From: a virus | Direction: 5' to 3' (one strand) | Length of the DNA: 64,000 nt | IMG/VR virus record: IMGVR_UViG_3300032173_000004 | Location: 11,816 to 75,815 of that record | Shown: positions 11,374 through 42,121 of the stretch, in pieces | Layout of the letters: every line of letters starts with the position of its first letter | How positions within the stretch are numbered: the stretch's first letter is position 1 | Notes under the pieces: generated by a model | Told to the model about the DNA's origin: nothing | The model's database searches: none | What the model saw: the letters and a program-made list of their open reading frames with translations, nothing else | Program-made: the position numbers and the translations under genes

Positions 11374-13980
11374 CTACGCAGCCTGCCTGGGCAGCTGGAG
11401 GTAGATATCGTTGAGCTGGAAGTTGATCCCCACCGCGGGGTAGATCATGACCTTGATGGTGGCGATGTCGCCACTGATCGTCACCCGGAGCTGCTCATAG
11501 CCCGGCACCGTCTCGCCGTTGTCGTTGAGCGAGGTGACGACAATGTTGTCGGCGTTGCATGCATCCAGGTACGCCACCGCGGTGTCTTTGATCGAAGCCG
11601 CGTTGGCTGGGCTGCCCTTGACACCGGTGAACCGGTCTTCAAGGGTCGTGCGAAGCCCGTAGGCCACGTACCGAACCACATCGCGAGTCGAACCTTCCAT
11701 GTAGGCCAGGTTGTCATCCTTCAGGTACGTCGTGAGGTCGCGGACCCACCTGATGCCCTTGCCTTGGACGAACTCCGCGAACAGAACTCCACCTGCGATC
11801 ATCTGATTCGCGTCCGTCCGGTCACGAGGATCCCAGGACGTGTCCTGAGTGATCGCAAAGGCCTTGAGGTACTTGTGGGTGAGGGGCTCGCCAACCTCAG
11901 GAGCACCAGACCTCATACCGGCAGCCTCAACTGCTTGCGCCCACGCATCCTGGGTCACCAGATTGCTGTCAACATCGAGAACATCGATCCTCTGTCCACA
12001 GAGTTGAATGTCTTCGTTGTTGATAGCTTGCACCTGAGACAGAATCTGGGTTTTCGTTCCCTTGTAGCCGATGATGCCACCACACTCATTCTTGGCAACA
12101 CCTCGAGCCATCGAAACGTGAGCCGACAGCTGAGCTGCTACTGCAGACCAAGTGGCATCCGAAGTAAGGCCTTCGTTGGCCAGATCTTCAACGATGAGAG
12201 GCACCACGAAGTTGTGGCGCACCTGCAGCATCATGTCGAACGCCGTCTGCCAGTCACTGTTGTGACTGTGACCGCGAGAACCGCCGGACAGGTACCTGTA
12301 TGTGTCTCCGACGACACCTACTGATCCACCCGTCCACTCTGGCCGACCACCACCGGTTCCGGTTCCTCCCGTCGTAGCCTTCGCCGCCGTGATCCACTGA
12401 TTCTTGACGTTGATGTCGTCAACCAGCTGCGACAGGTTCCGCTTGAAGTTGTTCGGCCACGGAACAGTGTAGGCCAGCGTCGGAGTCGGCTGAGTTGTCA
12501 CCGTGGCCAGATCGTTCCTCAGGTCTGATCCGGTGGCACCGAGATCGAAGTCGAACGACGAGGCCAGCGTCGTCTGCTTGTTGACATAGCTCGGGATCGT
12601 GGCCTTGTAGTTGGTGTTGGCGTTGATCGTCGCTGCCAGCTGCTCGACCGTGTCCAGCGGACTGATGGTGATGTTCAGCTCCTGAGTCGGAGAGACCGCC
12701 CCGTTGACCGCTGTCATCGTGCGAAAGGCTGTTGCCTTTCCAAGGGACCCGACAAACGATCCAGTGGCCTGGGTGACATAGTGAATCTCGTAGACATCAC
12801 CGACGCCAGGAAGCGTGGTCCACGGGCAGTCCAACGTGAGAACTGGAGCCGTACCAGCCGTGTTGCTGGTGATCGAGCGACGCTGACCGGCTCCCACGCC
12901 AGTCGTAATCGCCACGACCATGCCTGCCAGCTCGTTGGCAGCCACATTGATGGCATCGACACCCGTACCGGGCAGAGTCAACGATGATCCAGAGCCAGCG
13001 GCAAGCAGGGCCCCGGTCAAGATCTGACCCTTCCTGATCTCGTACGTGGCTCCGATGCCAGGAGCCAGCTGGAAGGCGTTGGTAACGCTGACCGTGGTCG
13101 CTCCATTGGCGCTGATCTTGCGAAAGTTCGGAGTGGTCAGAGCACCACCCGTCGCCTTGACGAAGAATCCGATCCACGCGCTCGGAGTCCACGCTTTGGT
13201 GGAGTCAGCGATCTGTGTCGTAGAGCCAGCTCCGTCGGCTGTTCCTCCGTCCAAGAGCACACGAGTCGACTGACCAATGTACTCTACTTGGAGGAATGAC
13301 TTGTCACCGAGGTCATCGCTAACCTGGGACAGATCTCCGAACGAAGTGGACCAGGCGCCGCCGCTGGTCACGCCAGGCTCCCACTCCTGTTTGATCTGAT
13401 TGGTGTGAGCACCGTAGTCCTTGCTCGTGAAGACGATCATCGGGGCAAGAACATACAACGTGGCCGAGGTAGCCGGAATCGCCGAGAACGGAGTTGCCAG
13501 CGTGATGGCTGTCGCCGTGTTGGTCAGGATCACTCGATCCTCTGAGCCACTCCGAAGGATGTTGTTCTTCAGCTCGTCCACGGTGAACGACTCGGCAGGA
13601 ACCTGGATAACCGATGTGGTGGATCCAGGCCCCACAACCACGCTGTCGATGCGGTTGTAGAGAGTCAACGCAGCCTGTGTGCTGTTGTTGACCTTGAGGC
13701 AAAGGCAGCGGAACGCGCCACCAGGGATACGTGGATCGTTCGACGCGTCGAACGCCACCCTGATGGCATCAGCCAGCTTGCCGTTGCGGAAGGCACCCTT
13801 GGCCAAGGCCGGATCGTCGATGGTGACGATCGTGAGAGGCGGTCCGCCCTCGGCCTCGCCAATCAGACCGACGATGCCATTGGTGGCGAGACCGATCTGG
13901 GCAAGAGCGCTGGAGTTGATCCTCGTGAGACCACCCGGTCGAAACTGGGTGATCCCGTTGAACGTTACTGAGCGTGCCAT
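11374..13980 (-). CDS. Tail sheath protein with inserted repeated beta domains
   Basis: N-terminus FNGITQFRPGG...GLIGEAEGGPP; C-terminus GIRWVRDLTT...LEDRFTG...VMIYPAVGINF, typical of SPO1/Twort-like sheaths. Confidence 0.9.
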   Translation of the reverse strand: MARSVTFNGITQFRPGGLTRINSSALAQIGLATNGIVGLIGEAEGGPPLTIVTIDDPALAKGAFRNGKLADAIRVAFDASNDPRIPGGAFRCLCLKVNNSTQAALTLYNRIDSVVVGPGSTTSVIQVPAESFTVDELKNNILRSGSEDRVILTNTATAITLATPFSAIPATSATLYVLAPMIVFTSKDYGAHTNQIKQEWEPGVTSGGAWSTSFGDLSQVSDDLGDKSFLQVEYIGQSTRVLLDGGTADGAGSTTQIADSTKAWTPSAWIGFFVKATGGALTTPNFRKISANGATTVSVTNAFQLAPGIGATYEIRKGQILTGALLAAGSGSSLTLPGTGVDAINVAANELAGMVVAITTGVGAGQRRSITSNTAGTAPVLTLDCPWTTLPGVGDVYEIHYVTQATGSFVGSLGKATAFRTMTAVNGAVSPTQELNITISPLDTVEQLAATINANTNYKATIPSYVNKQTTLASSFDFDLGATGSDLRNDLATVTTQPTPTLAYTVPWPNNFKRNLSQLVDDINVKNQWITAAKATTGGTGTGGGRPEWTGGSVGVVGDTYRYLSGGSRGHSHNSDWQTAFDMMLQVRHNFVVPLIVEDLANEGLTSDATWSAVAAQLSAHVSMARGVAKNECGGIIGYKGTKTQILSQVQAINNEDIQLCGQRIDVLDVDSNLVTQDAWAQAVEAAGMRSGAPEVGEPLTHKYLKAFAITQDTSWDPRDRTDANQMIAGGVLFAEFVQGKGIRWVRDLTTYLKDDNLAYMEGSTRDVVRYVAYGLRTTLEDRFTGVKGSPANAASIKDTAVAYLDACNADNIVVTSLNDNGETVPGYEQLRVTISGDIATIKVMIYPAVGINFQLNDIYLQLPRQAA

Positions 13981-16773: not shown

Positions 16774-18186
16774 CTACAGAACCACCACTCCCAGCCCCTT
16801 GTACCTGCCCTTGACCCCTTTGATCTCCCGGTTGATGAACTTGTTGTAATCCTCGATAGTTGCAGCGTAGATCCCGTAGACGGCGCTGGCAGTGTAGGAC
16901 ACGCTCTCCGACACCCCGTCTCGGGATAGGGACTGGGAGGAGAACCCGCCGCGGTAGGCGTGCCCAGCGACCGTCAGAGCGTCGATGGCGGCCTTCTTGC
17001 CCAAGATCTCCAGAAGAACAGGATCCACTTGCCTCAAACCAGCCCGCCCGTTGAAGTGCCAGAAGTTCGGCAGCTCGATCTGACCACGGATGCTCTCGAC
17101 CCAGACAAGGCCGATGAACTGGAAAGCGATCTGCTGATTGAAAGGCACCAGCTGCGAGTACCCACTACGCTCAGCAATCTCTAGCCATTCCAGGGCTGTA
17201 TCGATGATCCTGGTATTGGCGATCTGGCCAAACAGGTTGTCGAGCCTCAGCAGGCCAGGGTAAGGGAACATGATGTCGATCCAACGAGCTGGGGTCGACG
17301 GGAAGAACGTGATTGGCGGAACAAGGAAGTCCCAGTCCACTACCGGGCCACCTGGAACCGGAACCAAATCCGTGGTGATCCGAGTAGGCTCTAGAAACAC
17401 GCCCGCGAGCTTGTCGTTCTCCAACCAGTCGCACGACTGGTTGATCCAGCGACGTAGCATGTCGTCAGTGATTTCGGCTGCCGTGACGAACAGCTCCTCA
17501 GCTTTGTTGGCAGTGGGAAGAGCAGTCACGTTTCGAACCTGGATGACGATGTAGTCGCTGCCCTGGCAATCTCTCTTGAGAAGATAACGACCAGGGGAGT
17601 TGATCACGATCAGAGGACCAGCTCCCCATGAGATCTGTCTCGAGACGGTTGCTGTTCCGTGGTAGACGTAGGTGAGCTTCTCGAACCCCGTGGCATGGGA
17701 CGTGCTGACCTGGACCACCTCAACGCCGGTGATCTCCGACGGCTGAAACTTCACAGCCCGCACATCGTTGGCTTCCAGAGGCAGACCGAAGATGTACGTG
17801 TCCCGGAGCTGCTGAGCCGTCAGGATCGAAATAAGGAAGTCAGCTGTCACACCCGCCACCGAGGGATTGGACTTCACGAACGCTTTGACGAAGTAGTACC
17901 CCCTACGGATGAGGTTGATCTGATACTGGTCAACTACATCTTCGTAAAGGTTGATCGACACAACTCCTACTTGTGGATCGGTAGTGCCAGAGATCGTGAC
18001 GTCCTTCGAGTACACTGCGACGCTTCGATCTCTACGCGCCTTGACAAGCTGCACCGTCAAGACAGTCCCTGACATGTTGCCGCCGCCAGACGCAGTCCAT
18101 TGGACATTGATCACCTGACGAGGACGCTCGAACTTGCTGTACTCGTCGAGATCAACAGTGACTTGGACAGTGGTTGGTGCCGCCAT
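16774..18186 (-). CDS. Head-tail adaptor with N-terminal extension
   Basis: C-terminus GGFSSQSLSRDGVSESVSYTASAVYGIYAATIEDYNK resembles SPO1/Twort adaptors. Confidence 0.7.
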   Translation of the reverse strand: MAAPTTVQVTVDLDEYSKFERPRQVINVQWTASGGGNMSGTVLTVQLVKARRDRSVAVYSKDVTISGTTDPQVGVVSINLYEDVVDQYQINLIRRGYYFVKAFVKSNPSVAGVTADFLISILTAQQLRDTYIFGLPLEANDVRAVKFQPSEITGVEVVQVSTSHATGFEKLTYVYHGTATVSRQISWGAGPLIVINSPGRYLLKRDCQGSDYIVIQVRNVTALPTANKAEELFVTAAEITDDMLRRWINQSCDWLENDKLAGVFLEPTRITTDLVPVPGGPVVDWDFLVPPITFFPSTPARWIDIMFPYPGLLRLDNLFGQIANTRIIDTALEWLEIAERSGYSQLVPFNQQIAFQFIGLVWVESIRGQIELPNFWHFNGRAGLRQVDPVLLEILGKKAAIDALTVAGHAYRGGFSSQSLSRDGVSESVSYTASAVYGIYAATIEDYNKFINREIKGVKGRYKGLGVVVL

Positions 18187-19273: not shown

Positions 19274-19654
19274 TCATGTTGGCTTTTTCGACGACAACAA
19301 CCCCGCCGTCACTGCCGGGAATGTGTCGCCGGTTGCCCTCTTCTTCGCTGCGCTTGATTTCTCTCTCACCGATGCCGCCAGGGCTATCACCTGAGCGCTG
19401 CCCTCTTCAGCGATGGCGGCCTGAGCTTTGGCTTTCACATCCCTCTTTCTGCTTCTCAGTCCTACCTGTGCGCTAAGAGCCATGTCAAGCTGATCGCTGG
19501 AGATCAGGCCATTCGCTATGAGAAGCTTTCCCAGCATCACCTCAATCGACGAATCAGCTTGCTCCTCAACAGCACATTCAAGCTGATGAGAATTGATAAT
19601 CCCCATCGCAAGCAGGATAGCCCCCAAAGATGTCGGGTCATCCTTCGGATTCAT
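19274..19654 (-). CDS. Stand-alone MshEN-like (T2SSE_N, c-di-GMP-binding fold) protein
   Basis: Two 24-aa motifs, SLGAILLAMGIINSHQLECAVEEQ and MLGKLLIANGLISSDQLDMALSAQ, match RLGxxLLxxGLIxxxxLxxxLxxQ apart from the first Arg (and Val for one Leu in motif 1). Confidence 0.8.
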   Translation of the reverse strand: MNPKDDPTSLGAILLAMGIINSHQLECAVEEQADSSIEVMLGKLLIANGLISSDQLDMALSAQVGLRSRKRDVKAKAQAAIAEEGSAQVIALAASVREKSSAAKKRATGDTFPAVTAGLLSSKKPT

Positions 19655-19881
19655 CGCGGACTCCTCCGTATCTCATCAAGATCTCGTTCCACCTTCTGTA
19701 GCGTACCGTTGAACTCAGTGTTCGTCTTGGTCATGGCCATACCAAGATCGTATAGCTTGTCAGCCAGTTGATTGATCCTCTTCTGGCTGTTGATGAACAG
19801 AATGATAAACACCGCGCACACAATCCACGGCGCCCCTAGTTTCAACAACGCAGTGATGACTGGTCCAAGAGCGGCGTCCAT
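19651..19881 (-). CDS. BhlA/UviB-like holin candidate
   Basis: 76 aa. One N-terminal TM segment (GAPWIVCAVFIILFI) then a coiled coil. Confidence 0.55.
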   Translation of the reverse strand: MDAALGPVITALLKLGAPWIVCAVFIILFINSQKRINQLADKLYDLGMAMTKTNTEFNGTLQKVERDLDEIRRSPR

Positions 19882-19988
19882 GGGTACCCCTTACCGAAGC
19901 CTATCAATGTAGTCGTTAAGCCTGAAGAACTTCTCCAGCAATTGCTGAATCAGCTCAAGGCCATCCTCCTCAGTAATCTCTCCATCGT

Positions 19989-20192
19989 TTATCCTACCAA
20001 CCAGCCTTTCAGGTCTCCTAGATCAATACCGAACTTAGCCTTGATCTTCTTGGCTAACGCTCTGAGGTCCGCAAGTTGTTGATCAAGAGTCTTCACCATT
20101 GGACACTCTACTACCTCACAAGAAAAGATCGAACGAAGTCGATCTTCCAAACTTGAAACCAGCCTAATGGCTGGAAACTCATTCGAGGACAT
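19989..20192 (-). CDS. Hypothetical protein
   Basis: 67-aa ORF in a lower-GC stretch. Confidence 0.4.
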   Translation of the reverse strand: MSSNEFPAIRLVSSLEDRLRSIFSCEVVECPMVKTLDQQLADLRALAKKIKAKFGIDLGDLKGWLVG

Positions 20193-27702: not shown

Positions 27703-29145
27703 CTAGGATACCAGCTGGCCGATGTTCACCATCCGCAGCCACTTCTTCGGCGCGAACAGGATCGGCGTGCCGTACAGGAGGATCTGCCACCTGTAGGCCG
27801 GAGCCAGAACCGCGAGGTCCAGGCGCATCATCGGAGCCAGCTGCCGGAACGTGAGCACCTGCGGAGTCAGCTCGCCCATGTAGGCGATGCTGGTGAACGG
27901 CAGGAGGAAGTTCACGTCGTTGCCTGTGGTCGTGCCACTGCCGGCCTGAGACGCTGCCGGGATCTGCATGATCAGGCTGTAGGAAGCGCCCGTCGAGGGA
28001 ACTCCCGCGCTGGATGCACGAGCCTTGGTGCGGTACACGCGGAAGAACTCTGGAGGGAAAGCGCCGATGGCAGCTGCGTTGGTGATCGTCAGCGGCAGGT
28101 GCTGGCCCGAATCCTTGTTGCCCTGAGTCAGGCTGCCCGCTGCGGACACCATGACCGGTGCGCTCTCGCCGAAGCGATTGCATGCGGTCACGGCATAGCA
28201 GTACTCGTTGGTCCCGGCGAAGGCGCCCTTGTTGAAGTCGCCATCCGTGCCGGCGCCAGCGCCCGCTGCGATCGAGGTGGGGGTGGCGGGAGCGTTGGGG
28301 TGCGTCGCCGCCGCAGGCGGGATCGGGAGCGGACGAATGAACACGTCCGGGTTGAACTCGATGTGACCCGCCTGCGTCGCCATCGAGTTGATCGCCTGGC
28401 CGATGACGCCGTTGACCGGCGCCGGCAGGCTGACCCGCTCACGCGGGTACATCGTCTTGGTGAGGTCGCTGAGGGCCCGCGGGTTGAGGAACAGATCCGT
28501 CGGGTAGGCGTAGTTCTCGACGAGGATGTTGCTGGCCTCTTCGATGTCCGCCTCGGTCAGACTGTTGCCCTGCAGATCCACGAACGCCGTCGGATCGATC
28601 AGCGCGTCGAGACCATCCCACTGCTCTGCCTCGCCGTCGTAGGCGAGAGCGCTGTCAGCCGTGAAGAGTGCCGTCTCGACACGCTCCAGCAGCCACAGGA
28701 TGCCGTTCTGGTTCTCGAGCGCGATGATGTCACCGTGCGCGGGGTGGACCAGCGTGGCCGGGTGGGTCACTTCCCGGGTCGTGCCCAGGAACTTGACCAG
28801 CTGCGTACGGCGGACGTAGCTCGAGTCAGTGCTGGGAGGCAGCTCGCCTTCCATCGTGAACGCGAAGCTCCCGGGGCCGTACGACGTCAGCTGGTTGTAC
28901 TCCTCGACGGTGGAGTACGCCGGGCTCTTGGGGATCTTCTTCCAGAACTTGATGTGGTGGTTGGTGTAGGTGACCACCTTGAGACTGGCCTCGAGCGACT
29001 CCACGCGGAGTGCGCTACCACCGGTCTGGTTGGTGATCTGGTAGCCGGCCTCGAGGGCCTTGCTCAGCTCACGGATGTCCTGCGCGGGGGCCAGGCCGAA
29101 ACCGTTGAGCCCCTCGTAGTGCGCCAGGGAAACCTGCGGGTACAT
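27703..29145 (-). CDS. Major capsid protein (SPO1/Twort-like)
   Basis: ELSKALEAGY...GGSALRVESLEASLKVVTY...KSPAYSTVEEY...VKFLG...EQWDGL...LYGTPILFAPKKW. Confidence 0.95.
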   Translation of the reverse strand: MYPQVSLAHYEGLNGFGLAPAQDIRELSKALEAGYQITNQTGGSALRVESLEASLKVVTYTNHHIKFWKKIPKSPAYSTVEEYNQLTSYGPGSFAFTMEGELPPSTDSSYVRRTQLVKFLGTTREVTHPATLVHPAHGDIIALENQNGILWLLERVETALFTADSALAYDGEAEQWDGLDALIDPTAFVDLQGNSLTEADIEEASNILVENYAYPTDLFLNPRALSDLTKTMYPRERVSLPAPVNGVIGQAINSMATQAGHIEFNPDVFIRPLPIPPAAATHPNAPATPTSIAAGAGAGTDGDFNKGAFAGTNEYCYAVTACNRFGESAPVMVSAAGSLTQGNKDSGQHLPLTITNAAAIGAFPPEFFRVYRTKARASSAGVPSTGASYSLIMQIPAASQAGSGTTTGNDVNFLLPFTSIAYMGELTPQVLTFRQLAPMMRLDLAVLAPAYRWQILLYGTPILFAPKKWLRMVNIGQLVS

Positions 29146-29175: not shown

Positions 29176-30192
29176 TTAGCGGCCATTGCCCTGGATGCGT
29201 GCCTGAATCTGCGTGAGCAGGTCAGGACGGATCTCCCCGGTCGTGTCGAACTTGATCACCTCGAGAGGGTTGATCTGGCTCTTCTCGACCATCTCCTGCA
29301 GCACCGCGATCACCTGACCCTTGGACAGGTTCTCCCCGCCCGCGGGACCGCCGAACGACTTGTTCAGCACGGTGCTCTGCTGGCCACCCGGGAGAGCCCG
29401 AAGCTGGCTCTTGGGGGCGCCAACAGGCAGCTGAGCGACCTGCTCGACCTGCTGCAGGCTGCCCGCGATGCCGTGACCGATGTTCGCCACGGCCTCGGCA
29501 AGCGACTTGTTGAACTCGGCCTGCTCGGACGCGAACTGCTGCAGAGCCGCGAAGAGCTGGTTGCCGATGTCCAGGGAGTAGGCCTGCTGACGCTGCTCGA
29601 CGGCAGCCAGACCCGTGCCGAAGGACTTGGCGAACTCGGCCAGGAACTCGGAGACCTCAATCCCCTTGTGGACCGTATCGTTGCTCGAAAGAACCTCGGA
29701 CATGGACTTGCCGAACGGGAACCCGCCCTTGTCGTCCTTGCCCTTGTCCTTCTTGCCATCCTTCTTGTCGTCCTTGTCGTCGTCATCGTCGTCCGCGTCC
29801 ATGCCCTTCATGGCCGGGGGCTTCATGCCGCCGCCGACACCCATCCCGCCAGCGCCGGTGATCGGACCGGCCTTGTCGAGATCCGACTTGAGGAGCGCCA
29901 GCTCGTCGACGGACAGCGGAAGGCCCTTCTTGACCTTCATCCGAATCGACTTGCGAACACCACGCTCGTTGTAGTCGGTCCCATCGGGCTTGATGTCGTC
30001 GGCGCCGGGGCCGTTGCCCGGGACGTCGGTGACCTTGCCTGCCGGCCAGTCGCGACGCTCGCTGTTCGGGCCGGTGCAGATCTGGGACTTGTTCATCGGT
30101 TCCCCGGTCTGACCACCCTTCGCGAGAGCCTCCAGGCGAGCCAGGCTCTTGTAGAACTCCTCGCTGCGGATCGTGGCCTCCTGCGGTGCCAT
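29176..30192 (-). CDS. Putative scaffold protein
   Basis: Between protease and MCP. ATG 30192 with SD AGGAGG. Acidic tract and many x-K-[S/A/G] sites. Confidence 0.75.
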   Translation of the reverse strand: MAPQEATIRSEEFYKSLARLEALAKGGQTGEPMNKSQICTGPNSERRDWPAGKVTDVPGNGPGADDIKPDGTDYNERGVRKSIRMKVKKGLPLSVDELALLKSDLDKAGPITGAGGMGVGGGMKPPAMKGMDADDDDDDKDDKKDGKKDKGKDDKGGFPFGKSMSEVLSSNDTVHKGIEVSEFLAEFAKSFGTGLAAVEQRQQAYSLDIGNQLFAALQQFASEQAEFNKSLAEAVANIGHGIAGSLQQVEQVAQLPVGAPKSQLRALPGGQQSTVLNKSFGGPAGGENLSKGQVIAVLQEMVEKSQINPLEVIKFDTTGEIRPDLLTQIQARIQGNGR

Positions 30193-30203
30193 CTCTTCGC
30201 CTC

Positions 30204-31163
30204 CTAGTTTGTGAGTCCGTTCATTCGAAAGACAGCCTTGGCCACGATCTGGGCCTGTGGCTGTGTGAGTTTGCGTTCCACCATCAGCCATGCAACGGAC
30301 TCTCCGAAGCTCATGGCCTCCGGCAACGACTTCCGAACATGCTCAGGATCAGAGTGACCGTACCGAAGATCACTCATCCGACCTTCCAGACTTTGAACCG
30401 TGATCGCACGACCTGAAGCTCCAGTAGCTGCGAACGCCTTGGCTGACTCGTTTCGCTTCTGGAGATCCATCTCTTCCTGGGTCAGAGAACGAATTGCCTT
30501 CTTCTGATCCCTTCCACCACCAGAACAGTTGCAGGCTCCACAGCACTTGCCGCCCGAAGACTCTTGGCACGATCCACGCTCTTCGCGGTGAGCTTTGTAG
30601 ACCATGTCTGGAGTAATCGAGATCGACTTGGCATCATCTGCGGCCCACCACTCCACTGGCAGGGCGTTCAACGACTTCACGACTTCGAGCCAGGTGTTGG
30701 TGTTGATCGGAGCTGCCGTGATGGCAATGTCCTGGATCCAGCACTTGATGATGGTCTTGCCAGTGCGGCGAAGAACCTTGCCCTGGATCGAGAAGCCCAC
30801 CTTACGGTTCGATCCTGATGCCTCGAGAGCCAGAATCAGCTCCCAGATCGAATCAGCCTCCTTGTGGTTCTGGAAGAGGAAGCCCTTGACGTAGAGACCC
30901 TTGGCAGTCACTCGACACTCGGTCGGCTGACCTACCTTGTTCTCGAATCCGGGCTTGTGGTCGTTGTTGAAAAAACCGTGCTTGAGGAAGTAAGAAAAGT
31001 CGATCCCGTGCTGCTTTACGATCTCATCCTGGAGATCCATGTCCTCCGTGGACGCGATGCCTTCGATCCATCGCTTCCCGTCCGCGGGCTTCTTGGTCTC
31101 AGGAGTGGATTTCGTGATCGGCAACCAGAAGGAAAAACCACTCTCTTGAAGAAGATCAAGCAT
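30204..31163 (-). CDS. Prohead (capsid maturation) protease
   Basis: IEGIASTEDMDLQDEIVKQHGIDFSYFLKHGFFNNDH...VGFSIQGKV...AITAAPIN. ATG 31163 preferred because the upstream GTG lies inside a terminator hairpin. Confidence 0.9.
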   Translation of the reverse strand: MLDLLQESGFSFWLPITKSTPETKKPADGKRWIEGIASTEDMDLQDEIVKQHGIDFSYFLKHGFFNNDHKPGFENKVGQPTECRVTAKGLYVKGFLFQNHKEADSIWELILALEASGSNRKVGFSIQGKVLRRTGKTIIKCWIQDIAITAAPINTNTWLEVVKSLNALPVEWWAADDAKSISITPDMVYKAHREERGSCQESSGGKCCGACNCSGGGRDQKKAIRSLTQEEMDLQKRNESAKAFAATGASGRAITVQSLEGRMSDLRYGHSDPEHVRKSLPEAMSFGESVAWLMVERKLTQPQAQIVAKAVFRMNGLTN

Positions 31164-31178
31164 CCAGGATCCAGAAAC

Positions 31179-31217
31179 AAAAAAAGGGAGGTCGAGCACT
31201 TGGCTCGGTCTCCCTTT
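31179..31217 (-). terminator. Promoter-proximal terminator/attenuator with CAAGU loop
   Basis: Minus strand AAAGGGAG-ACCGAGC-CAAGT-GCTCGAC-CTCCC-TTTTTTT. Confidence 0.75.
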
Positions 31218-31278: not shown

Positions 31279-31506
31279 CTACGCAGGTTTCTTTTGCGTC
31301 TGCAAGAAAAGTTTTGGCCTTCGATCACTTGGCTGAATCTTCGACGAGTCCAGCAAGACAGGCACCGGCACTTCCTCGCCGCAGTTCTTGCACACGGCGA
31401 AGGCTTTGCCATCGCGGAACACCATAACCTTGTTAAGGATTTTGACAGTCCCGTTGGCGGACTTCACCACCACACCACCACAAGGGCAGGTGATGACGTG
31501 CTCCAT
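31279..31506 (-). CDS. Zn-ribbon protein
   Basis: CPCGG...CKNCG. Confidence 0.65.
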   Translation of the reverse strand: MEHVITCPCGGVVVKSANGTVKILNKVMVFRDGKAFAVCKNCGEEVPVPVLLDSSKIQPSDRRPKLFLQTQKKPA

Positions 31507-34500
31507 CAGGCGACGGCCTGGATCCTGGAAATCATCGAATCGAGCAAGGATTTCGCAACGTTGCTATCTTGTCCCTGCTGTGGCCGATCTTCCTCGATCG
31601 GAGAGGTATCAGGCTCATCTTGCAGCTCGAAGCCGTCCGCACCGTCGTCCAGATCTCCCTTGCCCCCGTCCGCGTACTCTCTTCCATCGGGAGGAAGAGG
31701 TGGATCAGAAACACCCGTTGCCTGCTTGAACGACGCCCACTCTTGATCGTGCTCATGGAGCGGGTGACTGTGAATCCACTCGCTGAAGGCCTGCTCATCC
31801 GGCAGACGATCAGGGTGAGTTGCCGTTACGTGCCAGACCACAGGTCCGTACGTTCCCTGCGCAAGACTCTTCTCGATCTTCTTCAGCTTCTGGTAGTACT
31901 TCGGATCCTCTGTGAGATGATCCTTTGCGATCTCGTACGCAACGCTGGGATCATTGGTGTGCTCCATCTCCACCTTGATCCCCTCCATCACGCTGTCGAA
32001 GTCGAAATCCTTGTCAGCTCTTCCCTCTGCCAAACCACCAGGGATCTTATCCTTGGTGATCATGTAGGGATGCTTGTGAGTCCCGAAGACCTTGCTCTTG
32101 AACTCACGCATGGTCATCTGAGTCATCGATCCGAAAAAGTTCGGATTGTCGTAGTGCTTGAGGTAGGCCTTCTTCGCCTGCTTGGCCGAATCAAAGCCAA
32201 GCATACACTTGTCCTCGTCATACTGCTTGAAGTCCGGCCCCTTCATCTGGTGGATGACGAACACCTTGTCGGAGTTCCGACGTGGACCGACGTAGACGTC
32301 GACCTCTCCATTGTCCGTCCCCTCCGTCTTACGGATGAATCCGTACGGGTAGAGCATCTTCGTCTCACCCGTCTCTCCTGTCGCGTGATCCTCCCAACGG
32401 CGTATACTGCCGGCAGGATTCTCAATGGAGATCGGCAGGCCCTGAAACACCATCTTGCCTACGACACCGATCGAAGCTCCTGACTCTCGGTCGTCGATCT
32501 TCTGATGAAACGGCTGAGCTTTGCCAAGCTGGTGCTCGCTGCCTTCGAAGGCCGAATTCTCCGACGCCGGCTTCACATGCAACCAACGACCGGTCTTCTT
32601 GCTATCGACCCACCGGTAGCTACCGTGAACAGCGCCCGTTTCGGGATGAACCACGTCTCCGTGCCACTCCGACTTTGGATGAAGCTTCAGCTCCGTTCCA
32701 CTGTGGTCGGTGACCACTGCACGACCCATGCGTCCGCCTGGATCATGAGGAATGTTGATCTCACCTGGCTTCGTGCCGTACGACTTGTTCAGATCTGGGT
32801 TGTGGTGATGGATGGCCGCGATGTAGAGGGCCTCAACCAGCAGAGGATCGACGTACAGCTCCTGAGCAATCCTGTGGAAGCTGCCACCGCGGTGACCAAG
32901 CATCTGAGCCACTTGAGCCATCGCCTGCTTCGTGATCGCAGGCAGATTGTTCGGCTTCAGGTTGGCTTTCTTGGCAACCAGATTCTGGAAGACCTTCGAG
33001 AACAGCTCAGACCCGTGATAGACACGGAACTGGTTGAGTAGCAACCCAAACTGCTGATCCATGATCTGGGCCAACAGCGACTGGGGAATCCTCTGTCCGT
33101 TGATCTGAAACAGGTAGTCCTCTGGAGACTTGCCCTGCATCAGTTCCTGAAGGACTGCAGATGACTCGGAGTCCATGGTGACCACGGACTGATGCGGTCC
33201 ACCCGTCTTGTCCTTGTAGGTGAACTGGATCGTGTTGCCCTGAGGCGCCACGTCTTTCACCTTGATCGACAGAAGTCCACTTTCGTCGCCATCGGCCACC
33301 ATCTTGGCCTGATCCACCAGGGCCATGATGAGACCGAGAGCCCTCTCGCCCGGATCCTGGGACTGGAACAGGCTCGCATACCACTGACGAACCTTCTCCA
33401 GCTGCGCATCGACATGCTTCAGATCCTCATTGAACTTACGCCGAGGATCCTTCACACAGTCGCGGTGGAAGTAGTTGTGCTCGGTCTTGCCAGTCTCTGG
33501 GTCCTGATACCTCTGAGCCCAGTGATAGATATCAGGATCATAGTGATTATTGTCCTCAACCTCAGCACCCTCTGGAGCCGGGCGATTGAGCTTTCGACCA
33601 CGATGATCGAAGAACTGCGGTGCTACATCCGGCGTTGGCTCATGCGGGTGAACCTGAGGCGGACCTGCATTGGGATCATGGTGGGGGTGACCCTCAGGAG
33701 CGTTGGTTCCTCGGACCACGTTGCCTTGTGGATCTTCCCACATGTGCCGATGAGCACCAGGCTCTCCCTCTCTCCAGAGGTACTTCATGGTGTTGGAGTG
33801 CATCGGCTCTCCAGCCATTGCCTTGGCCAGAACATCCAGAGCCTCTTCGAAAAGAAGATCATCGAAGGCCTTGCGGGTGTACTCATACTGCGAATAGTCC
33901 GGCTCGTACTCCTCACCGGCAACGTCAGCGTACCTTTGGGCGTACTCGTCCTCCGGTTCTTTCGCAGCTGGACGGGACATGGCAGCCATGCGCTGCCGGT
34001 AGGCCTCTTCTTCTTTTCTACGCTGAGCCTGAATCTCCGGTGGGGCGAGATGAGCATACGGATCCTCTGTCGTCCCCGCCTCTACTGCTTCCGGCTCCAT
34101 CATGTGGCCGCCGCCAGCCAGCTCGTGAGCTGCTCCCTGATAGCCTTGCGTCTGCTGAAGCTGCTGTTGACGGGCTACCATCTGCTCTGGACCTGCCTGG
34201 TATCCAGTCCCCATCTTCAGACCCACACCACCAGGCTCACGACCCTGCCGAGCTTGGCCTCCCGGAGCCGGGCGTGCTGTCCACGACACCTCTGGCTCCT
34301 GGTACGGAACCGCACCAGCCTTCGGGCTGCGCATCACCTCTCCGGTCTCAGGATCGGCGAACTCAGCAGCACTTACCTGCATCGCACCCTTCGGCTTGGC
34401 AGCCTTGGCACCTTGCCTCTTGATCTCAGGCTGATCACGATACTCCCGCATCTGCTGTTCCTGTGCTGCCGACAAGAACTGAGGCAGACTTCGGATCATC

Positions 34501-36677
34501 TCACCGCGAGCAGTGTTGAGCAGGTGATTCTGAAACCGACCTCGATGCGGATTGTAGGTGTTGATGGCGTGCTCTACTGACGCGCCGATGGCGTGGCTGG
34601 CTAGCTCTTTGGCCAAGTCGTGAGATTGCGGATCCATGTGGCCACTGTACAGACCTCGAGGGCGCAGAACTCCATAGGCAGCCATGTTGTAGAGAGGGCC
34701 CATGTTCTCGGTCTGGATGTCTCGCTTGACCTTCCGTTCCAGCTCAGGACTGTTGAACTGAAGCTTGGGCGCCATACGAACATTGCGAATCTCGTGACCC
34801 AGAGAGTTGATCGTCGTTCTGACAGCTGTCGGTGCCTCACCCCACGTCCACGTTCCATGCTCCCCGTGCTCAAGAGCATTCGTGGTCTTCATCGGCTTGC
34901 GAGACTCTTTTCCTTCAGGACCACGACGAGGACGCCAGTCTGCGTCGTGCTCCACGTACGACGTGGGTTCCCATCCTGCCGTGTGCTTCAACTTCTGCCG
35001 TTCTGCGGGTGGCGTCGCTCCTCGCTCTTCCTCATCCTTGAGAAAGCGCATCGTCGATGCGTGCTTCGCCACGAAGTTTCGCAGATTGTCCGGCGTCTCC
35101 GCATGGCCGCGGGACCACTCTCCGGGCTCCTCGCCGTAGGCCTCAGCAAGAGCCTTTCCGTACTTGCTGGTCGTGTCGAACTGAGTCAGTGGCTTTCCAG
35201 TCCCTGTCTTCGGGCTGCGCCAGTGAAGCCACGGCTGACCATGAGGATCGTACTCCGTGTTGACCTGGTTCTGCAGCAGATGCCTTTCGAAGTCAGCCAT
35301 TGATCCAGGTCGATATGCCTGCTGCACGTTGGTCTTGCCAGGGGTCTGTCCGGGACCGTAGACGACAACAGAGCCCTTGGTGAACTTGGGCACACCTTTT
35401 TCGTCAACTGCGATCTCTTTCTGTTTGCCTGGCTGATCTCCCTTGCCACGGCGTCCCGCACCTCGGGCAGAGCCAGGCATGTGGATGATCTTGTCCTCGG
35501 TCTTGCCCGTGTCCTTGTTGAACAGCTGAGCCGGGAACGAACCACCCTCAGCGACATGCCACGCTCTCGAGTGATGATAGGCCTCCTCGGGAGAAGACAC
35601 GTTGGCAGCCTTGGTCTCTGGGTGGATGTCCATCGTGTGACCTGACAGACGACCCATGTGTTGAATGCCGTGGTGGCCCTCGGGATGCATCTCACCCGTG
35701 TAGGCGTACTGCCAACGGCCATTCTCCCACCACCTTTTGACGTACTGGTGACCCTGCTTCTCAGGAGCCGCCACAGGCTTCTGGGGCGCCGCAGCTGCCA
35801 CTGGGGCTGCCGGAGCCTTGGGAGCCGCTGCGGGGGCTTCCTGAGCCGCTGGAGCGCCTCCAGCAGCCTCTGCTTCGCCCAGAGCTTTGGACAGCAAGCC
35901 GCCCTCGAAATCCGGCCTCCAGCACCACAGGATACCGGTGGCTCCATCCAAAGAGCGTGCCAGGATGTTGGTGAACTTCTCCATACCAGCTCGGTCACCA
36001 GCCCCAAGATACCGGCGGATCTCCTGAATCGGATTGGTCATGGGAACCTTGATCCCGAGCACCTCCGACCAGGGCCTGCGCTGATTCTTTCCCGGTCGGA
36101 TCGGTCCCGGAGCTTTGTACTTGGTGTCTGACGTTCTCTCGTAGCCATACTTGAGAGCCAGAGGATCACCATTGGCGTCACGCGGCGTGTAGTCTCCGAA
36201 GGTGTCGACAGGCGACACTTGAGACGACATCACAGCGATCGACTTGGTGGCTTCCTTCTCTTCGTCCTTCTCCGTTTGCTCTTGAGCTTCTTCCTGCGCT
36301 TCGCCACTGTCCTGAGCATCCTGGGCAGCCTGCTCGTTCTCCTCTGCTTGACCAGAGTTGATCATGTCCTGGCGCTTCTCTTCACGCTTTCGCTGCAACT
36401 CTTCAGGATCACCACCGCGGAAGGTGCCTTCTTCTGACGGGTCCTTGGCCTTGCGAACCACAGGATTCTTGCGATCTGTGGTATTGACCCAGCTTGGCTC
36501 CATCCAGTCCGGCAGGCCGTCTGGTGTCGACTTGTCCACCTCAGCTTCCTGCCGCTTCTCTTCCCTCTTCTCCTGCATGTCCACCGGGTCACCACCGCGG
36601 AAGGTCCCATCCCCATCGCTATCGGACGCTTTGGAGATCATCTCATTGATGAGGTCGTGAGAGCTGCTAAGCCGCAT
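31506..36677 (-). CDS. Large multidomain (polyvalent-type) protein: sigma70-r2-like, topoisomerase IB-like, InPase and DUF5661-like modules
   Basis: ATG 36677 with SD GGAGG. InPase: GLPISIENPAGSIR...YGFIRKTEGTDNGEVDVYVG...DEDKCMLGF. TopIB-like: IQFTYKDKTG...FRVYHG...VAQMLGH...LYVDP. DUF5661-like: DKIPGGLA...GIKVEMEHT...IAKDHLTEDPKYY. Confidence 0.8.
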   Translation of the reverse strand: MRLSSSHDLINEMISKASDSDGDGTFRGGDPVDMQEKREEKRQEAEVDKSTPDGLPDWMEPSWVNTTDRKNPVVRKAKDPSEEGTFRGGDPEELQRKREEKRQDMINSGQAEENEQAAQDAQDSGEAQEEAQEQTEKDEEKEATKSIAVMSSQVSPVDTFGDYTPRDANGDPLALKYGYERTSDTKYKAPGPIRPGKNQRRPWSEVLGIKVPMTNPIQEIRRYLGAGDRAGMEKFTNILARSLDGATGILWCWRPDFEGGLLSKALGEAEAAGGAPAAQEAPAAAPKAPAAPVAAAAPQKPVAAPEKQGHQYVKRWWENGRWQYAYTGEMHPEGHHGIQHMGRLSGHTMDIHPETKAANVSSPEEAYHHSRAWHVAEGGSFPAQLFNKDTGKTEDKIIHMPGSARGAGRRGKGDQPGKQKEIAVDEKGVPKFTKGSVVVYGPGQTPGKTNVQQAYRPGSMADFERHLLQNQVNTEYDPHGQPWLHWRSPKTGTGKPLTQFDTTSKYGKALAEAYGEEPGEWSRGHAETPDNLRNFVAKHASTMRFLKDEEERGATPPAERQKLKHTAGWEPTSYVEHDADWRPRRGPEGKESRKPMKTTNALEHGEHGTWTWGEAPTAVRTTINSLGHEIRNVRMAPKLQFNSPELERKVKRDIQTENMGPLYNMAAYGVLRPRGLYSGHMDPQSHDLAKELASHAIGASVEHAINTYNPHRGRFQNHLLNTARGEMIRSLPQFLSAAQEQQMREYRDQPEIKRQGAKAAKPKGAMQVSAAEFADPETGEVMRSPKAGAVPYQEPEVSWTARPAPGGQARQGREPGGVGLKMGTGYQAGPEQMVARQQQLQQTQGYQGAAHELAGGGHMMEPEAVEAGTTEDPYAHLAPPEIQAQRRKEEEAYRQRMAAMSRPAAKEPEDEYAQRYADVAGEEYEPDYSQYEYTRKAFDDLLFEEALDVLAKAMAGEPMHSNTMKYLWREGEPGAHRHMWEDPQGNVVRGTNAPEGHPHHDPNAGPPQVHPHEPTPDVAPQFFDHRGRKLNRPAPEGAEVEDNNHYDPDIYHWAQRYQDPETGKTEHNYFHRDCVKDPRRKFNEDLKHVDAQLEKVRQWYASLFQSQDPGERALGLIMALVDQAKMVADGDESGLLSIKVKDVAPQGNTIQFTYKDKTGGPHQSVVTMDSESSAVLQELMQGKSPEDYLFQINGQRIPQSLLAQIMDQQFGLLLNQFRVYHGSELFSKVFQNLVAKKANLKPNNLPAITKQAMAQVAQMLGHRGGSFHRIAQELYVDPLLVEALYIAAIHHHNPDLNKSYGTKPGEINIPHDPGGRMGRAVVTDHSGTELKLHPKSEWHGDVVHPETGAVHGSYRWVDSKKTGRWLHVKPASENSAFEGSEHQLGKAQPFHQKIDDRESGASIGVVGKMVFQGLPISIENPAGSIRRWEDHATGETGETKMLYPYGFIRKTEGTDNGEVDVYVGPRRNSDKVFVIHQMKGPDFKQYDEDKCMLGFDSAKQAKKAYLKHYDNPNFFGSMTQMTMREFKSKVFGTHKHPYMITKDKIPGGLAEGRADKDFDFDSVMEGIKVEMEHTNDPSVAYEIAKDHLTEDPKYYQKLKKIEKSLAQGTYGPVVWHVTATHPDRLPDEQAFSEWIHSHPLHEHDQEWASFKQATGVSDPPLPPDGREYADGGKGDLDDGADGFELQDEPDTSPIEEDRPQQGQDSNVAKSLLDSMISRIQAVA

Positions 36678-36957
36678 TGGGACCCTCCGGGACGTCGCTC
36701 TGCGCACCAAGACCGCCGCCTTCCTGACCAGCGTTCTGCTTCATGTACAGGACATGATCTCGACCCTTGGCCGTACGGAGAAGCTCATCGATCTTGGTGT
36801 GAAGCTGCTCGTCGTGGATGTACATCTGCTCCAGCTTCTCAAGGCGCTGGATGATCTGTCTCATCTCGTCCAGGTCTTGAACCTGAAACAGGTAGCTCTC
36901 GTCAGGAAGAGCTGCTTGAGAAGCATTCAGAAGCGAATGAGCCTTGGAGTCGATCAT
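36667..36957 (-). CDS. Hypothetical protein
   Basis: 96 aa, closely packed between MuF and the large ORF. Confidence 0.6.
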   Translation of the reverse strand: MIDSKAHSLLNASQAALPDESYLFQVQDLDEMRQIIQRLEKLEQMYIHDEQLHTKIDELLRTAKGRDHVLYMKQNAGQEGGGLGAQSDVPEGPNAA

Positions 36958-40150: not shown

Positions 40151-42121
40151 CTAGTCGATGAAAGAAGAGATCAGGGTGCCGTTCTGACTCTTGGCCATGT
40201 TGGTCTGACCCATCGTGCTGCAGGACGGGCACTTGTCCTCCATGCCCTTGTGCAACGTGTAGGTTCGTCCACAGCCGTCGCAGCTCTTAATGATCGGAGA
40301 GCGATGCGTCCTCTCGTCCTCGTCATGCTCGAGGATGTTGAGCACCTCAGCATTGAGGGGACCTGCACCAGCGTGCTTGGCAAACACCGAGTTGCCACGA
40401 GTCATCGCCTGGGTGGCGGACCTCCAGGTGTCCATCGACACAGCCAGAGCCCTCGGCAAGCGAGGAACCGACATCGAAGTCACAGCCTTGCTGACCTCGG
40501 ACTCGTTGCCAGCCGCAGCGGCACCGTGAACCGGACCCTGCTCCTTCTTGGGACAGCCAGCAGACTGCTTCCCGTGAACCTTGCCCTGAGAAGGACCCTT
40601 TCCAGCGTAGTCCTCCTCGTCGGACTTGTTCATCTGAGAAACGTTACCAGGTGCTGCTGTTCCGTGAACCGAGCCCTGGCTTGACCGAGAACCAACGTGA
40701 TCCTCTTCTTCATTTGGAGCGACGCTCGTTTGGGCTGGCCCGATCCCCATGTGCGCCGAACCGTGAACTGGGCCCTGGCTGGCGCGAGCCGCCACATGGT
40801 CCTCTTCGGCGTTGGGAGTGACACTCATCTGAGCAGGTCCAGCGTTCGGATGCTGTGCCCCGCGGACTGGCCCCTGCCGGTTGGCATCATTGCCGGCGAA
40901 GCACTTCATCATGTCCTGCAGCATCTCGATCGCTGACTTCTTCATGCTCTTCTCCTTGGCGGCAGCAGCTGGGATGGGTGGTGGAGTAGCTCTAGCGGAT
41001 GTCAGAACGTCGCCACCGTGAGACACCGTGTGCAGACCCGAGGCTCCACCCACTCTAACCGATCCCATAGACAACCTCGGCTTCGCCGCAGCGGCTGGAG
41101 TGCTTGGGGCGAACTTGGTTGGTTGCGGCTTTCCCTCCTGAGCCAAGATCGTTCGATGCTCTTCTTCTTTGACAACATGCTCCGGGAGCTTCACCCCTCC
41201 CGCCGTCGGAGTCCCCGCTGGTCTAGTCCCTGATCCAGAGAACGTGGCCCCCTGCTTCCCGATATTCACGCTGCCGAGGTAGGCCTTCTCTGTCGTGTCA
41301 GACTTGATGGCTGGCTCTGGGAACAGCCGTATGCCCTTTGCCGAGCACGACTTGCCCATGGCCCTGTTGACGCTGCCACTGAGAAAGTTCGCGTTGGCAC
41401 TCGATCGCCACGCCTTCTGACGATTTGCGGGAGTAGGGTTGTGAGCAGCGACGTGATGATCCATCGCCGCCTGCATATTCGCGTGGAAGGCCTTCTCGTG
41501 ATGCTCCTTGAGCGGCCCGCCCTTCGCTGCATGACTCTGATGCTCTTGGGCCGCGTCGAAGTACGGCTTCACGTTGCCCGCATGAATCTCACGGGGCTCA
41601 TAGCCGAGCTGCTTCGCTTCTTCGGAAGACTTCATCATGGAGTCCAGCATGTCTCCAGCTTGCGATTTTCCCATCATCTTGCTCCCGGTTTCTTTGATCC
41701 GTTTTTCACGATGTTCTTGAGAAAGACGAGCACCCGGCCTGTCTATCCCAAGCTTTGGAAGCCCGGGAGCCGGCTTGTCCAGAATCGATTCCACTTCTTT
41801 TGAACCACCTTCGAAGTCCTTGTGAACGGCAACAGACTTCTCGGCCCCGACCTGAACGTTGTGACGGATGGTGTGAGTGATCCTAGATGGAATCACTCTC
41901 TGACCACGGTACTTCGGAGCCAATCTCTTGGCTCCGCTAGTCAGCACCTTCTGCTTCTTGCTCTTGGCCGGCTTGAGCTTCTTCTTCTTTTCAAGTGCCT
42001 TGTCCATGAGACACTCCATAGCTTTCTGGGCCGACGTGTGAAGCTTTCCCGGCTCCCACTCCTTGACAGAACCACCAGGATCAAAACGACCCTGTTCTCG
42101 TCTGGGCTCAGCGGGATTCAC
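40151..42121 (-). CDS. Low-complexity putative internal head protein with internal repeats
   Basis: Repeated (S)QG(P/S/K)VHG and PNxEEDHV. Many x-K-[S/A] sites. C-terminal CxxC...CPSC. Confidence 0.65.
   Translation of the reverse strand: MNPAEPRREQGRFDPGGSVKEWEPGKLHTSAQKAMECLMDKALEKKKKLKPAKSKKQKVLTSGAKRLAPKYRGQRVIPSRITHTIRHNVQVGAEKSVAVHKDFEGGSKEVESILDKPAPGLPKLGIDRPGARLSQEHREKRIKETGSKMMGKSQAGDMLDSMMKSSEEAKQLGYEPREIHAGNVKPYFDAAQEHQSHAAKGGPLKEHHEKAFHANMQAAMDHHVAAHNPTPANRQKAWRSSANANFLSGSVNRAMGKSCSAKGIRLFPEPAIKSDTTEKAYLGSVNIGKQGATFSGSGTRPAGTPTAGGVKLPEHVVKEEEHRTILAQEGKPQPTKFAPSTPAAAAKPRLSMGSVRVGGASGLHTVSHGGDVLTSARATPPPIPAAAAKEKSMKKSAIEMLQDMMKCFAGNDANRQGPVRGAQHPNAGPAQMSVTPNAEEDHVAARASQGPVHGSAHMGIGPAQTSVAPNEEEDHVGSRSSQGSVHGTAAPGNVSQMNKSDEEDYAGKGPSQGKVHGKQSAGCPKKEQGPVHGAAAAGNESEVSKAVTSMSVPRLPRALAVSMDTWRSATQAMTRGNSVFAKHAGAGPLNAEVLNILEHDEDERTHRSPIIKSCDGCGRTYTLHKGMEDKCPSCSTMGQTNMAKSQNGTLISSFID

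Follow-up and report, generated by a model that had tools for sequence, protein, structure and literature searches.

The phages analysed here encode a family of minimal MshEN_N proteins, and these are obligatorily co-encoded with a bitopic membrane protein. In the window (the whole stretch of DNA that was analysed, 64,000 nucleotides long) the pair lies on the minus strand and consists of TM76, a 76-aa bitopic membrane protein recognized, across 16 members of its family, by hydropathy and by the charges on either side of the hydrophobic stretch (positions 19651–19881), and a stand-alone MshEN_N-type protein of 126 aa, recognized from profile matches and the family alignment, whose gene follows directly (19274–19654). 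The minimal MshEN_N protein is probably bound to its bitopic membrane partner, and the reading that we favour, with a probability of roughly one in three (about 0.35), is that the 126-aa protein is a membrane-tethered cytoplasmic ligand sensor that tunes TM76, its holin-like partner.

The window is part of a 75.8-kb source record whose CheckV completeness is about 45%; its GC content runs from 52 to 65%, nearly all of its genes are on the minus strand, and no tRNA genes were found in the 64,000 nt. It carries, all on the minus strand, genes for a portal (42108–44129), prohead protease (30204–31199), scaffold (29176–30291), major capsid protein (27703–29145), fibre-like protein (16774–18186), sheath (11374–13980) and baseplate protein (529–2418), and the capsid protein is 41–46% identical to Herelleviridae capsids. 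Next to the prohead protease gene, toward the portal gene, lies a further gene (31506–36710, minus strand) for a 1734-aa protein in which an InPase domain (4.6e-35), DUF5661 and the catalytic core of a eukaryotic-type topoisomerase IB (1.4e-15) were recognized; this protein looks like a "polyvalent" multi-enzyme protein and is possibly packaged and injected.

The first-pass annotation of this DNA had reported that the ATG of the 126-aa gene overlaps the stop codon of the single-TM gene, and this was borne out: stop and start share the sequence ATGA (19651–19654). A GGAGGAG Shine-Dalgarno sequence (19661–19667) lies 7 nt 5′ of that ATG, within the last TM76 codons, and overlap and Shine-Dalgarno sequence together make up a translational-coupling signal (19651–19667, minus strand). 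The two conserved Arg-Arg codons at the end of TM76 (CGG AGG) are in most lineages the Shine-Dalgarno sequence of the downstream gene, and the C-terminal protein sequence of TM76 and the translation signal are jointly constrained. Judged by these signals, the TM76 gene and the 126-aa gene would be expressed as one translationally coupled unit. A promoter and terminator scan around the gene pair gave results no better than those from shuffles.

Conservation of the gene pair, one of the checks that the annotation had asked for, proved to be strong, with no exception among the loci that extend far enough upstream: a single-TM gene of 73–98 aa lies directly upstream of the MshEN-type gene in 8 of 8 viral and 7 of 7 metagenome loci (only seven metagenome loci have enough upstream sequence to be counted), and near-identical contigs collapse these loci to about 11 distinct lineages. 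An ATGA or GTGA stop/start overlap is present in 11 of 12 lineages, the window included, with CGGAGG upstream in most of them. The pair is kept despite flanks that differ and that may be other structural genes or replication genes. In the window and in loci L001–L006, L012 and L015 it directly precedes a conserved set of genes for 139–142-aa, 211-aa and ~470-aa fibre-like structural proteins, an arrangement that could be taken to mean that the pair is a morphogenesis factor, namely a chaperone anchored in the membrane that would help to assemble the neck or fibre proteins whose genes lie just downstream. However, in L007, L013, L008, L014, L016 and L020 the downstream genes differ (they are replication genes in L007) and the pair is nonetheless kept, and no structural-protein homology was found for it, so that we give this explanation hardly any credence. 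In L007, which is a complete 105-kb genome, the pair is grouped with genes for small membrane and coiled-coil proteins beside helicase and primase genes; with replication genes next to the pair in the one complete relative (G003), its late expression is not assured.

The distant lineages L007 (6146–9916) and L013 (896–3277) have the pair within a run of 5–7 small proteins with coiled coils rich in Ala, Glu and Arg and with TM segments at the N- or C-terminus; a "PFAG(V/I)LLT..ALAKL" motif is shared by one of them. None of the proteins in this run has a family assignment, and the run may be a larger membrane module. Neither a DNA nor a protein match to the locus was found in the isolated-phage collection; the family-pattern scan of genome contigs gave no match, and single-protein scans with P0036 and P0049 as queries found nothing.

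Upstream of the pair in the window is a gene (19891–20192, minus strand) that is split between two frames, as its three-frame translation shows on comparison with the L014 and L016 ORFs. A 67-aa ORF (19989–20192) ends in ...GWLVG*, and homology to the L014 and L016 proteins resumes in another frame, whose continuation reads RINDGEITEEDGLELIQQLLEKFFRLNDYIDRLR* with its stop codon at 19891–19893. Homologues of this gene, 90–103 aa long, go with the pair in the relatives L014 and L016. Programmed slippage, a frameshift or an error in the assembly could each account for the split near 19990.

The 126-aa protein, which has neither a signal peptide nor a TM segment, contains two 24-residue MshEN motifs separated by a 7-aa linker, just as had been claimed for it. 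Motif I (residues 9–32; 19559–19630, minus strand) has the pattern S-LG-xx-LL-xx-G-II-xxxx-L-xxx-V-xx-Q and the sequence SLGAILLAMGIINSHQLECAVEEQ; the spacer ADSSIEV (residues 33–39; 19538–19558, minus strand) lies between the two motifs; and motif II (residues 40–63; 19466–19537, minus strand) has the pattern M-LG-xx-LI-xx-G-LI-xxxx-L-xxx-L-xx-Q and the sequence MLGKLLIANGLISSDQLDMALSAQ. The NCBIfam model NF053729 (c-di-GMP_motif, MshE-related; cyclic di-GMP-binding domain), which has 53 positions and a cut-off of 38 bits, matches the protein with 46.7 bits (E 2e-12), a match that is, as measured by this model, far beyond chance. The same model is above cut-off in five of five related phage records, with exactly one such gene in each record. 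The NfrB MshEN region model also matches the protein (1e-6), and a 12-sequence family profile compared with PDB sequences found PilF (1e-9, a value that applies to the full PilF chain), residues 18–80 of Geobacter PilB (3e-8) and MshE 5HTL (1e-4); the regions matched in PilF, PilB and MshE are their N-domains. When the single 126-aa sequence was used in an exhaustive search of 1.8 billion proteins, 517 cluster representatives were found at E ≤ 1e-3.

The HMM match to T2SSE_N/MshEN that the first-pass annotation proposed as a check was obtained with the 53-residue NCBIfam model and failed with the Pfam model, since PF05157 (MshEN/T2SSE_N) had no match in the 126-aa protein at E ≤ 1 nor in 65 relatives at E ≤ 0.1. 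This failure has a simple reason: PF05157 covers the C-terminal α/β subdomain, which is absent from the 126-aa protein. For example, our query aligns to residues 8–63 of the PilF-like control P0087, and PF05157 (90 positions) maps to residues 61–147 of the same protein. Because PF05157 spans the α/β subdomain and not the 53-residue motif, the missing match is not evidence against the motif. PF00437 (the T2SSE ATPase) had no match in the 126-aa protein or the 65 relatives. By these profile comparisons the 126-aa protein is an MshEN_N-only protein, which is modelled to continue into a long helix, without the MshEN_C subdomain or the ATPase.

Proteins that have MshEN_N alone escape Pfam annotation and show weak PatA_N (DUF4388) or FumaraseC_C noise; the Pfam "MshEN" model skips the 53-residue binding motif, and such proteins therefore go unannotated. 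PatA_N/PATAN (PF14332, formerly DUF4388) was considered as an assignment for the 126-aa protein and rejected, with 17.6 bits against a gathering score of 25 and a match limited to profile positions 51–88 of 122. The PATAN domain has a helical insert with a similar LGxxLxxxGxI...Q motif, and weak matches to it were seen in 51 of 65 family members, but all of these are below the gathering score and involve the helical insert only, not the PATAN core.

An AF2 model of residues 1–69 (pLDDT 92.6) places helices at 10–16, 22–34, 37–47 and 53–68, where they are expected for MshEN_N. In the AF2 model of the full 126-aa protein a continuous helix runs from residue 53 to residue 107, and the C-terminal motif has a pLDDT below 60. 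In structure searches with the full model, the long helix governed what was matched; with the N-domain model, which is a small (~60-residue) helical query, Foldseek and VIA-align gave weak matches to unrelated structures and retrieved neither 5HTL nor PilF (best Z 4.0), and the Atlas structure search gave a TM of 0.43 to the T2SSE/MshEN cluster. The long basic helix (residues 64–107; 19334–19465, minus strand), delimited by the AF2 model, its charge and its conservation, is continuous with motif helix 4 and carries a conserved "LRS...RA.A.A" stretch. At its far end is the C-terminal linear motif (R/K)(R/K)xTGxx(Y/H/F)PA(I/V)TxxML (19295–19342, minus strand), which was recognized by its conservation in the family.

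This family comprises more than 100 sequence clusters of 115–135 aa (about 125 aa) that align end to end, and conservation was counted in an alignment of 65 members. Gly11 and Gly42 are present in 65 of 65, Gln32 in 58 and Gln63 in 63; position 25 is Leu in 48 and Val or Ile in 16. Both motifs of the window protein have Leu-Gly at motif positions 2–3 and Gln at position 24, and in the family alignment the hydrophobic motif positions 6, 7, 11, 12, 17 and 21 are kept in both. Position 9, the start of motif I, is Ser in 50 of 65 members and Thr in 9, with one Leu, no Lys and never Arg, and position 40, the start of motif II, is Leu in 34, Met in 11 and Arg in 7. The spacer is 7 residues long in 59 of 65 members, as it is in the Geobacter PilB alignment. 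Specific to the family are the acidic "DDPTS" N-terminus, the "AQxxLRS...RAxAxA" continuation after motif II and the C-terminal linear motif, and its two halves carry opposite charge: the net charge of domain 1–63 is −7 in the window protein (family mean −4.4) and that of the long helix is +7 (family mean +6.6). Motif-rich relatives of the 126-aa protein are mostly from Myxococcota and Planctomycetota.

The best reference point for these residues is the MshEN_N of V. cholerae MshE (5HTL; NF053729), which likewise has two tandem 24-residue motifs; these form four helices in MshE and are predicted to do so in the phage protein. In each motif both proteins have the Leu-Gly, the hydrophobic triads and the Gln at the end, and the numbering of motif I is identical (L10, G11, L25, Q32). 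The phage protein differs from MshE in its spacer of 7 residues rather than 5 (PMC5013675), in having Ser and Met where both MshE motifs lead with Arg, and in its acidic rather than basic N-terminus; it also has no MshEN_C α/β subdomain or ATPase, and has instead a long basic helix fused to the domain and a membrane-protein partner.

Do these differences leave a pocket that can bind c-di-GMP? Hydrophobic residues and glycines weigh most in MshEN binding (PMC5013675). The first-pass annotation had stressed that the leading Arg of both motifs is replaced, and Ser9 and Met40 are indeed present, but their presence is less damaging than was implied, since Arg-free PilF GSPII-B binds: in this domain Lys and Leu replace both arginines and the c-di-GMP affinity is 6 nM, its K167L form has a value of 2 nM, and the consensus has accordingly been widened to (R/K/L)LG (PMC11731258). 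Thermus thermophilus PilF GSPII-B (8PDK) has a hydrophobic start of motif II (Leu196), as does the phage family with its Leu or Met, and because Leu at a motif start binds in GSPII-B, Leu or Met at motif II should be no obstacle; Met40 of the window protein is itself outside the R/K/L consensus, and Leu is the commonest residue at this position in the family. The two proteins differ at the start of motif I, where GSPII-B has Lys and the phage family Ser or Thr, and in the C-terminal subdomain, which adds contacts in GSPII-B and is absent from the phage protein.

Motif I is thus the weaker point. Ser9 of the window protein is none of Arg, Lys and Leu, one guanine would be poorly capped by it, and we counted against c-di-GMP binding both the Ser or Thr found here in 59 of 65 members and the acidic domain, whose N-terminal "DD" stands opposite the basic patch of MshE (PMC5013675). 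In resurrected PilF GSPII-A constructs a Ser at the motif start alone abolished binding (PMC12002112); the Ser of GSPII-A is at the start of motif II and that of the phage protein at the start of motif I. All of these points speak for the main rival to the sensor reading, in which a degenerate MshEN_N fold serves as a nucleotide-free protein–protein adaptor and forms a membrane complex with TM76 in another role, for example superinfection exclusion, envelope host takeover or the anchoring of another phage or host protein. Such an adaptor would also fit with the wide occurrence of the same motif pair in non-ATPase repeat proteins with TPR, Hpt or dockerin domains, with the conserved C-terminal peptide motif, which suggests a protein partner, and with the placement of the L007 and L013 pairs among small membrane and coiled-coil proteins. 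It does not, however, readily account in structural terms for the invariant glycines and near-invariant glutamines, which are the contacts lost in non-binders (PMC5013675). In the non-binders XpsE and PilF GSPII-A the Gly and Gln contact positions are those that are altered (PMC5013675, PMC12002112), with Gln and/or Gly lost (H33 and R62 in GSPII-A; G11V, G40L and Q61V in XpsE), whereas the phage family keeps both. Judging from the alignment, the ligand-contact Gly and Gln positions of the phage family are under selection. We give the adaptor reading slightly less weight than the sensor reading, and consider binding of c-di-GMP or a close analogue by the 126-aa protein a real possibility at a little below even odds.

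Binding, if it occurs, could serve purposes other than sensing. The isolated MshEN_N (residues 1–62) suffices for c-di-GMP binding with a KD of 0.35 µM (PMC5013675), and the high affinity of MshEN_N alone (PMC5013675, PMC11731258), together with a single-copy gene in every related phage checked, would suit a sponge or decoy that takes up c-di-GMP in the infected host and so reprograms its surface polysaccharides, biofilm formation or motility. An abundant soluble sink is, however, poorly served by the apparent membrane tethering and a translational coupling near 1:1; the gene is mostly inside structural operons, the phages supply no c-di-GMP enzymes alongside it (the five related phage records contain neither GGDEF nor EAL genes), and binding itself is uncertain. 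We therefore find a sponge quite improbable.

The profile matches raise a further alternative that does not depend on nucleotide binding. The best sequence matches among solved structures are the N-domains of PilF and PilB, and other phages are known to target PilB, so the 126-aa protein could in principle be a dominant-negative mimic of the N-terminus of a PilB/GspE-type ATPase that blocks type IV pili or type II secretion and so brings about superinfection exclusion. Yet no protein of the pilus machine is known to bind the four-helix MshEN_N subdomain, the 126-aa protein has neither the MshEN_C subdomain nor the ATPase, and its nearest relatives among long proteins are repeat proteins that are not ATPases; such a mimic is very unlikely.

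TM76, the membrane partner, has a 14-aa N-terminus, one TM segment at about residues 15–31, and a 45-aa helical tail that is about 40% charged and contains 9 K/R and 7 D/E residues. The basic cluster that follows the TM segment (SQKR in the window TM76, ERKRK in most relatives) predicts, by the positive-inside rule, that the tail is cytoplasmic, with an N-out/C-in topology. TM76 has 13 close homologues; Pfam, NCBIfam and other searches found no homology to any known family, holins included, and its profile found no solved relatives. The single TM segment of the gene that the first-pass annotation called holin-like is as described, but "holin-like" holds for shape only: TM76 is small, has at least one TM segment and ends in a charged hydrophilic C-terminus, as holins do, and has no homology to holin families. 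Weak Pfam matches to Phage_holin_10 in two family members were treated as spurious, there being none in the five phage records. We also rejected a spanin: the tail of TM76 falls short of the length needed and is predicted to lie in the cytoplasm, and the 126-aa partner lacks a lipobox.

Complex prediction with the TM76 tail and the 126-aa protein gave a score of 0.45, and the best of three controls gave 0.00. Of 80 solved complexes 58 come up to that mark, as do 2 of 110 mismatched pairs; those that do so with a score of 0.60 or under are only 7 of the 80 complexes, together with both mismatched pairs. At least 91% of contacts are common to the runs, and the partner has a pLDDT of at least 71. 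We read the prediction as a weak indication that the TM76 tail and the 126-aa protein may form a complex.

The surroundings of the pair in its relatives give a further lead toward the cell envelope. In L001, L002, L006, L012, L014 and L016 (3–4 lineages) a 3-TM protein of 110–130 aa and a cysteine-hydrolase candidate lie just upstream of the pair, the hydrolase candidate being one or two genes away in these six loci. The candidate is 183–189 aa long, with 183–233 aa as the range in its family, and has an invariant His and Cys (SH...MCSE); members of the family are at 6780–7331 in L001, 3867–4568 in L002, 4137–4706 in L014 and 472–1041 in L016. It has no Pfam, NCBIfam or PDB-sequence match, and the Atlas, by features (score 0.94) and by structure (TM 0.75), groups it with cysteine hydrolases of the YiiX/C92 type, which are permuted NlpC/P60 enzymes. 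A PHROGs label of "enoyl-CoA hydratase-like" was set aside, as the SH...CSE motif and the Atlas point to YiiX/C92 instead. As a lead only, the SH...MCSE family is a candidate unannotated endolysin. At the same spot L008 (6556–7383) has a patatin-like phospholipase (2.5e-28), and L003 (6290–7423), L005 and L015 have a secreted 377-aa protein with a signal peptide, for which no relatives were detected and none are solved. The exchange of hydrolase, patatin and 377-aa protein looks like non-orthologous replacement of an envelope-active enzyme, and enzyme swapping beside conserved small membrane proteins resembles the organization of lysis cassettes, a resemblance that we offer as a lead by analogy. 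Of the three roles that the first-pass annotation put forward, a part in lysis timing draws indirect support from the holin-like shape of TM76 and, in relatives, from the nearby 3-TM protein and C92 hydrolase candidate; the sponge and the pilus mimic draw none. In the window phage itself no hydrolase, endolysin or multi-TM gene adjoins the pair (the record is about 45% complete), Amidase_2 candidates in two relatives (G002, G003) are 31–44 kb from the pair, and no Phage_lysozyme was found in the five phage records.

In the sensor reading, TM76 would span the inner membrane, its short N-terminus on the outer face and its charged 45-aa helix reaching into the cytoplasm, and the 126-aa protein would dock on this tail through its long basic helix, the proposed contact being with the TM76 tail and/or acidic lipids. 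Docking would keep the acidic four-helix MshEN_N pocket just below the membrane. The pocket, in which the Gly, Gln and Leu-triad positions known as c-di-GMP contacts from MshE and PilF are kept, would most likely still bind c-di-GMP or a close relative by the arginine-free hydrophobic stacking of PilF GSPII-B. Occupancy by the ligand would alter the hold of the 126-aa protein on TM76, and the altered hold would tune the timing of TM76 membrane action in the manner of a cytoplasmic antiholin, so that the physiological state of the host would feed into lysis timing. In this picture the domain identity, the residue pattern of the family, the coupling signals, the constant pairing and the predicted topology come from the data, and the contact between the two proteins, the ligand and the part in lysis are inferred. 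The lack of GGDEF and EAL genes in these phages counts against the sensor as well. In its fullest form, in which the phage reads host c-di-GMP through a tethered arginine-free MshEN_N receptor to time membrane opening by a holin-like partner, the proposal is on the unlikely side.

Holin and antiholin pairs such as T/RIII of T4 and LydA/LydB of P1 offer a precedent for the logic. In these, as in the phage pair, a small membrane protein with a charged tail goes with an adjacent gene for a soluble regulator, but this is a works-like analogy only, with no sequence similarity to the phage pair and no adjacent endolysin in the window. We know of no ligand-sensing antiholin.

Among c-di-GMP receptor modules MshEN ranks second in how widely it occurs, and to our knowledge it has so far been described only in bacterial proteins; a literature search found no phage-encoded MshEN. 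The 126-aa protein may be the first phage-encoded receptor of the MshEN type. Lysis timed by c-di-GMP, if true, would mean that no c-di-GMP receptor encoded by a phage and no antiholin gated by a ligand had come before this pair. Should the protein not bind, the family would show cleanly, as an experiment of nature, which motif positions binding requires, with Ser at the start of motif I and the rest of the motifs kept. If it does bind, it would be a compact natural sensor of 60 residues, and virulent phages would be eavesdropping on the second messenger by which their hosts choose between sessile and motile life.
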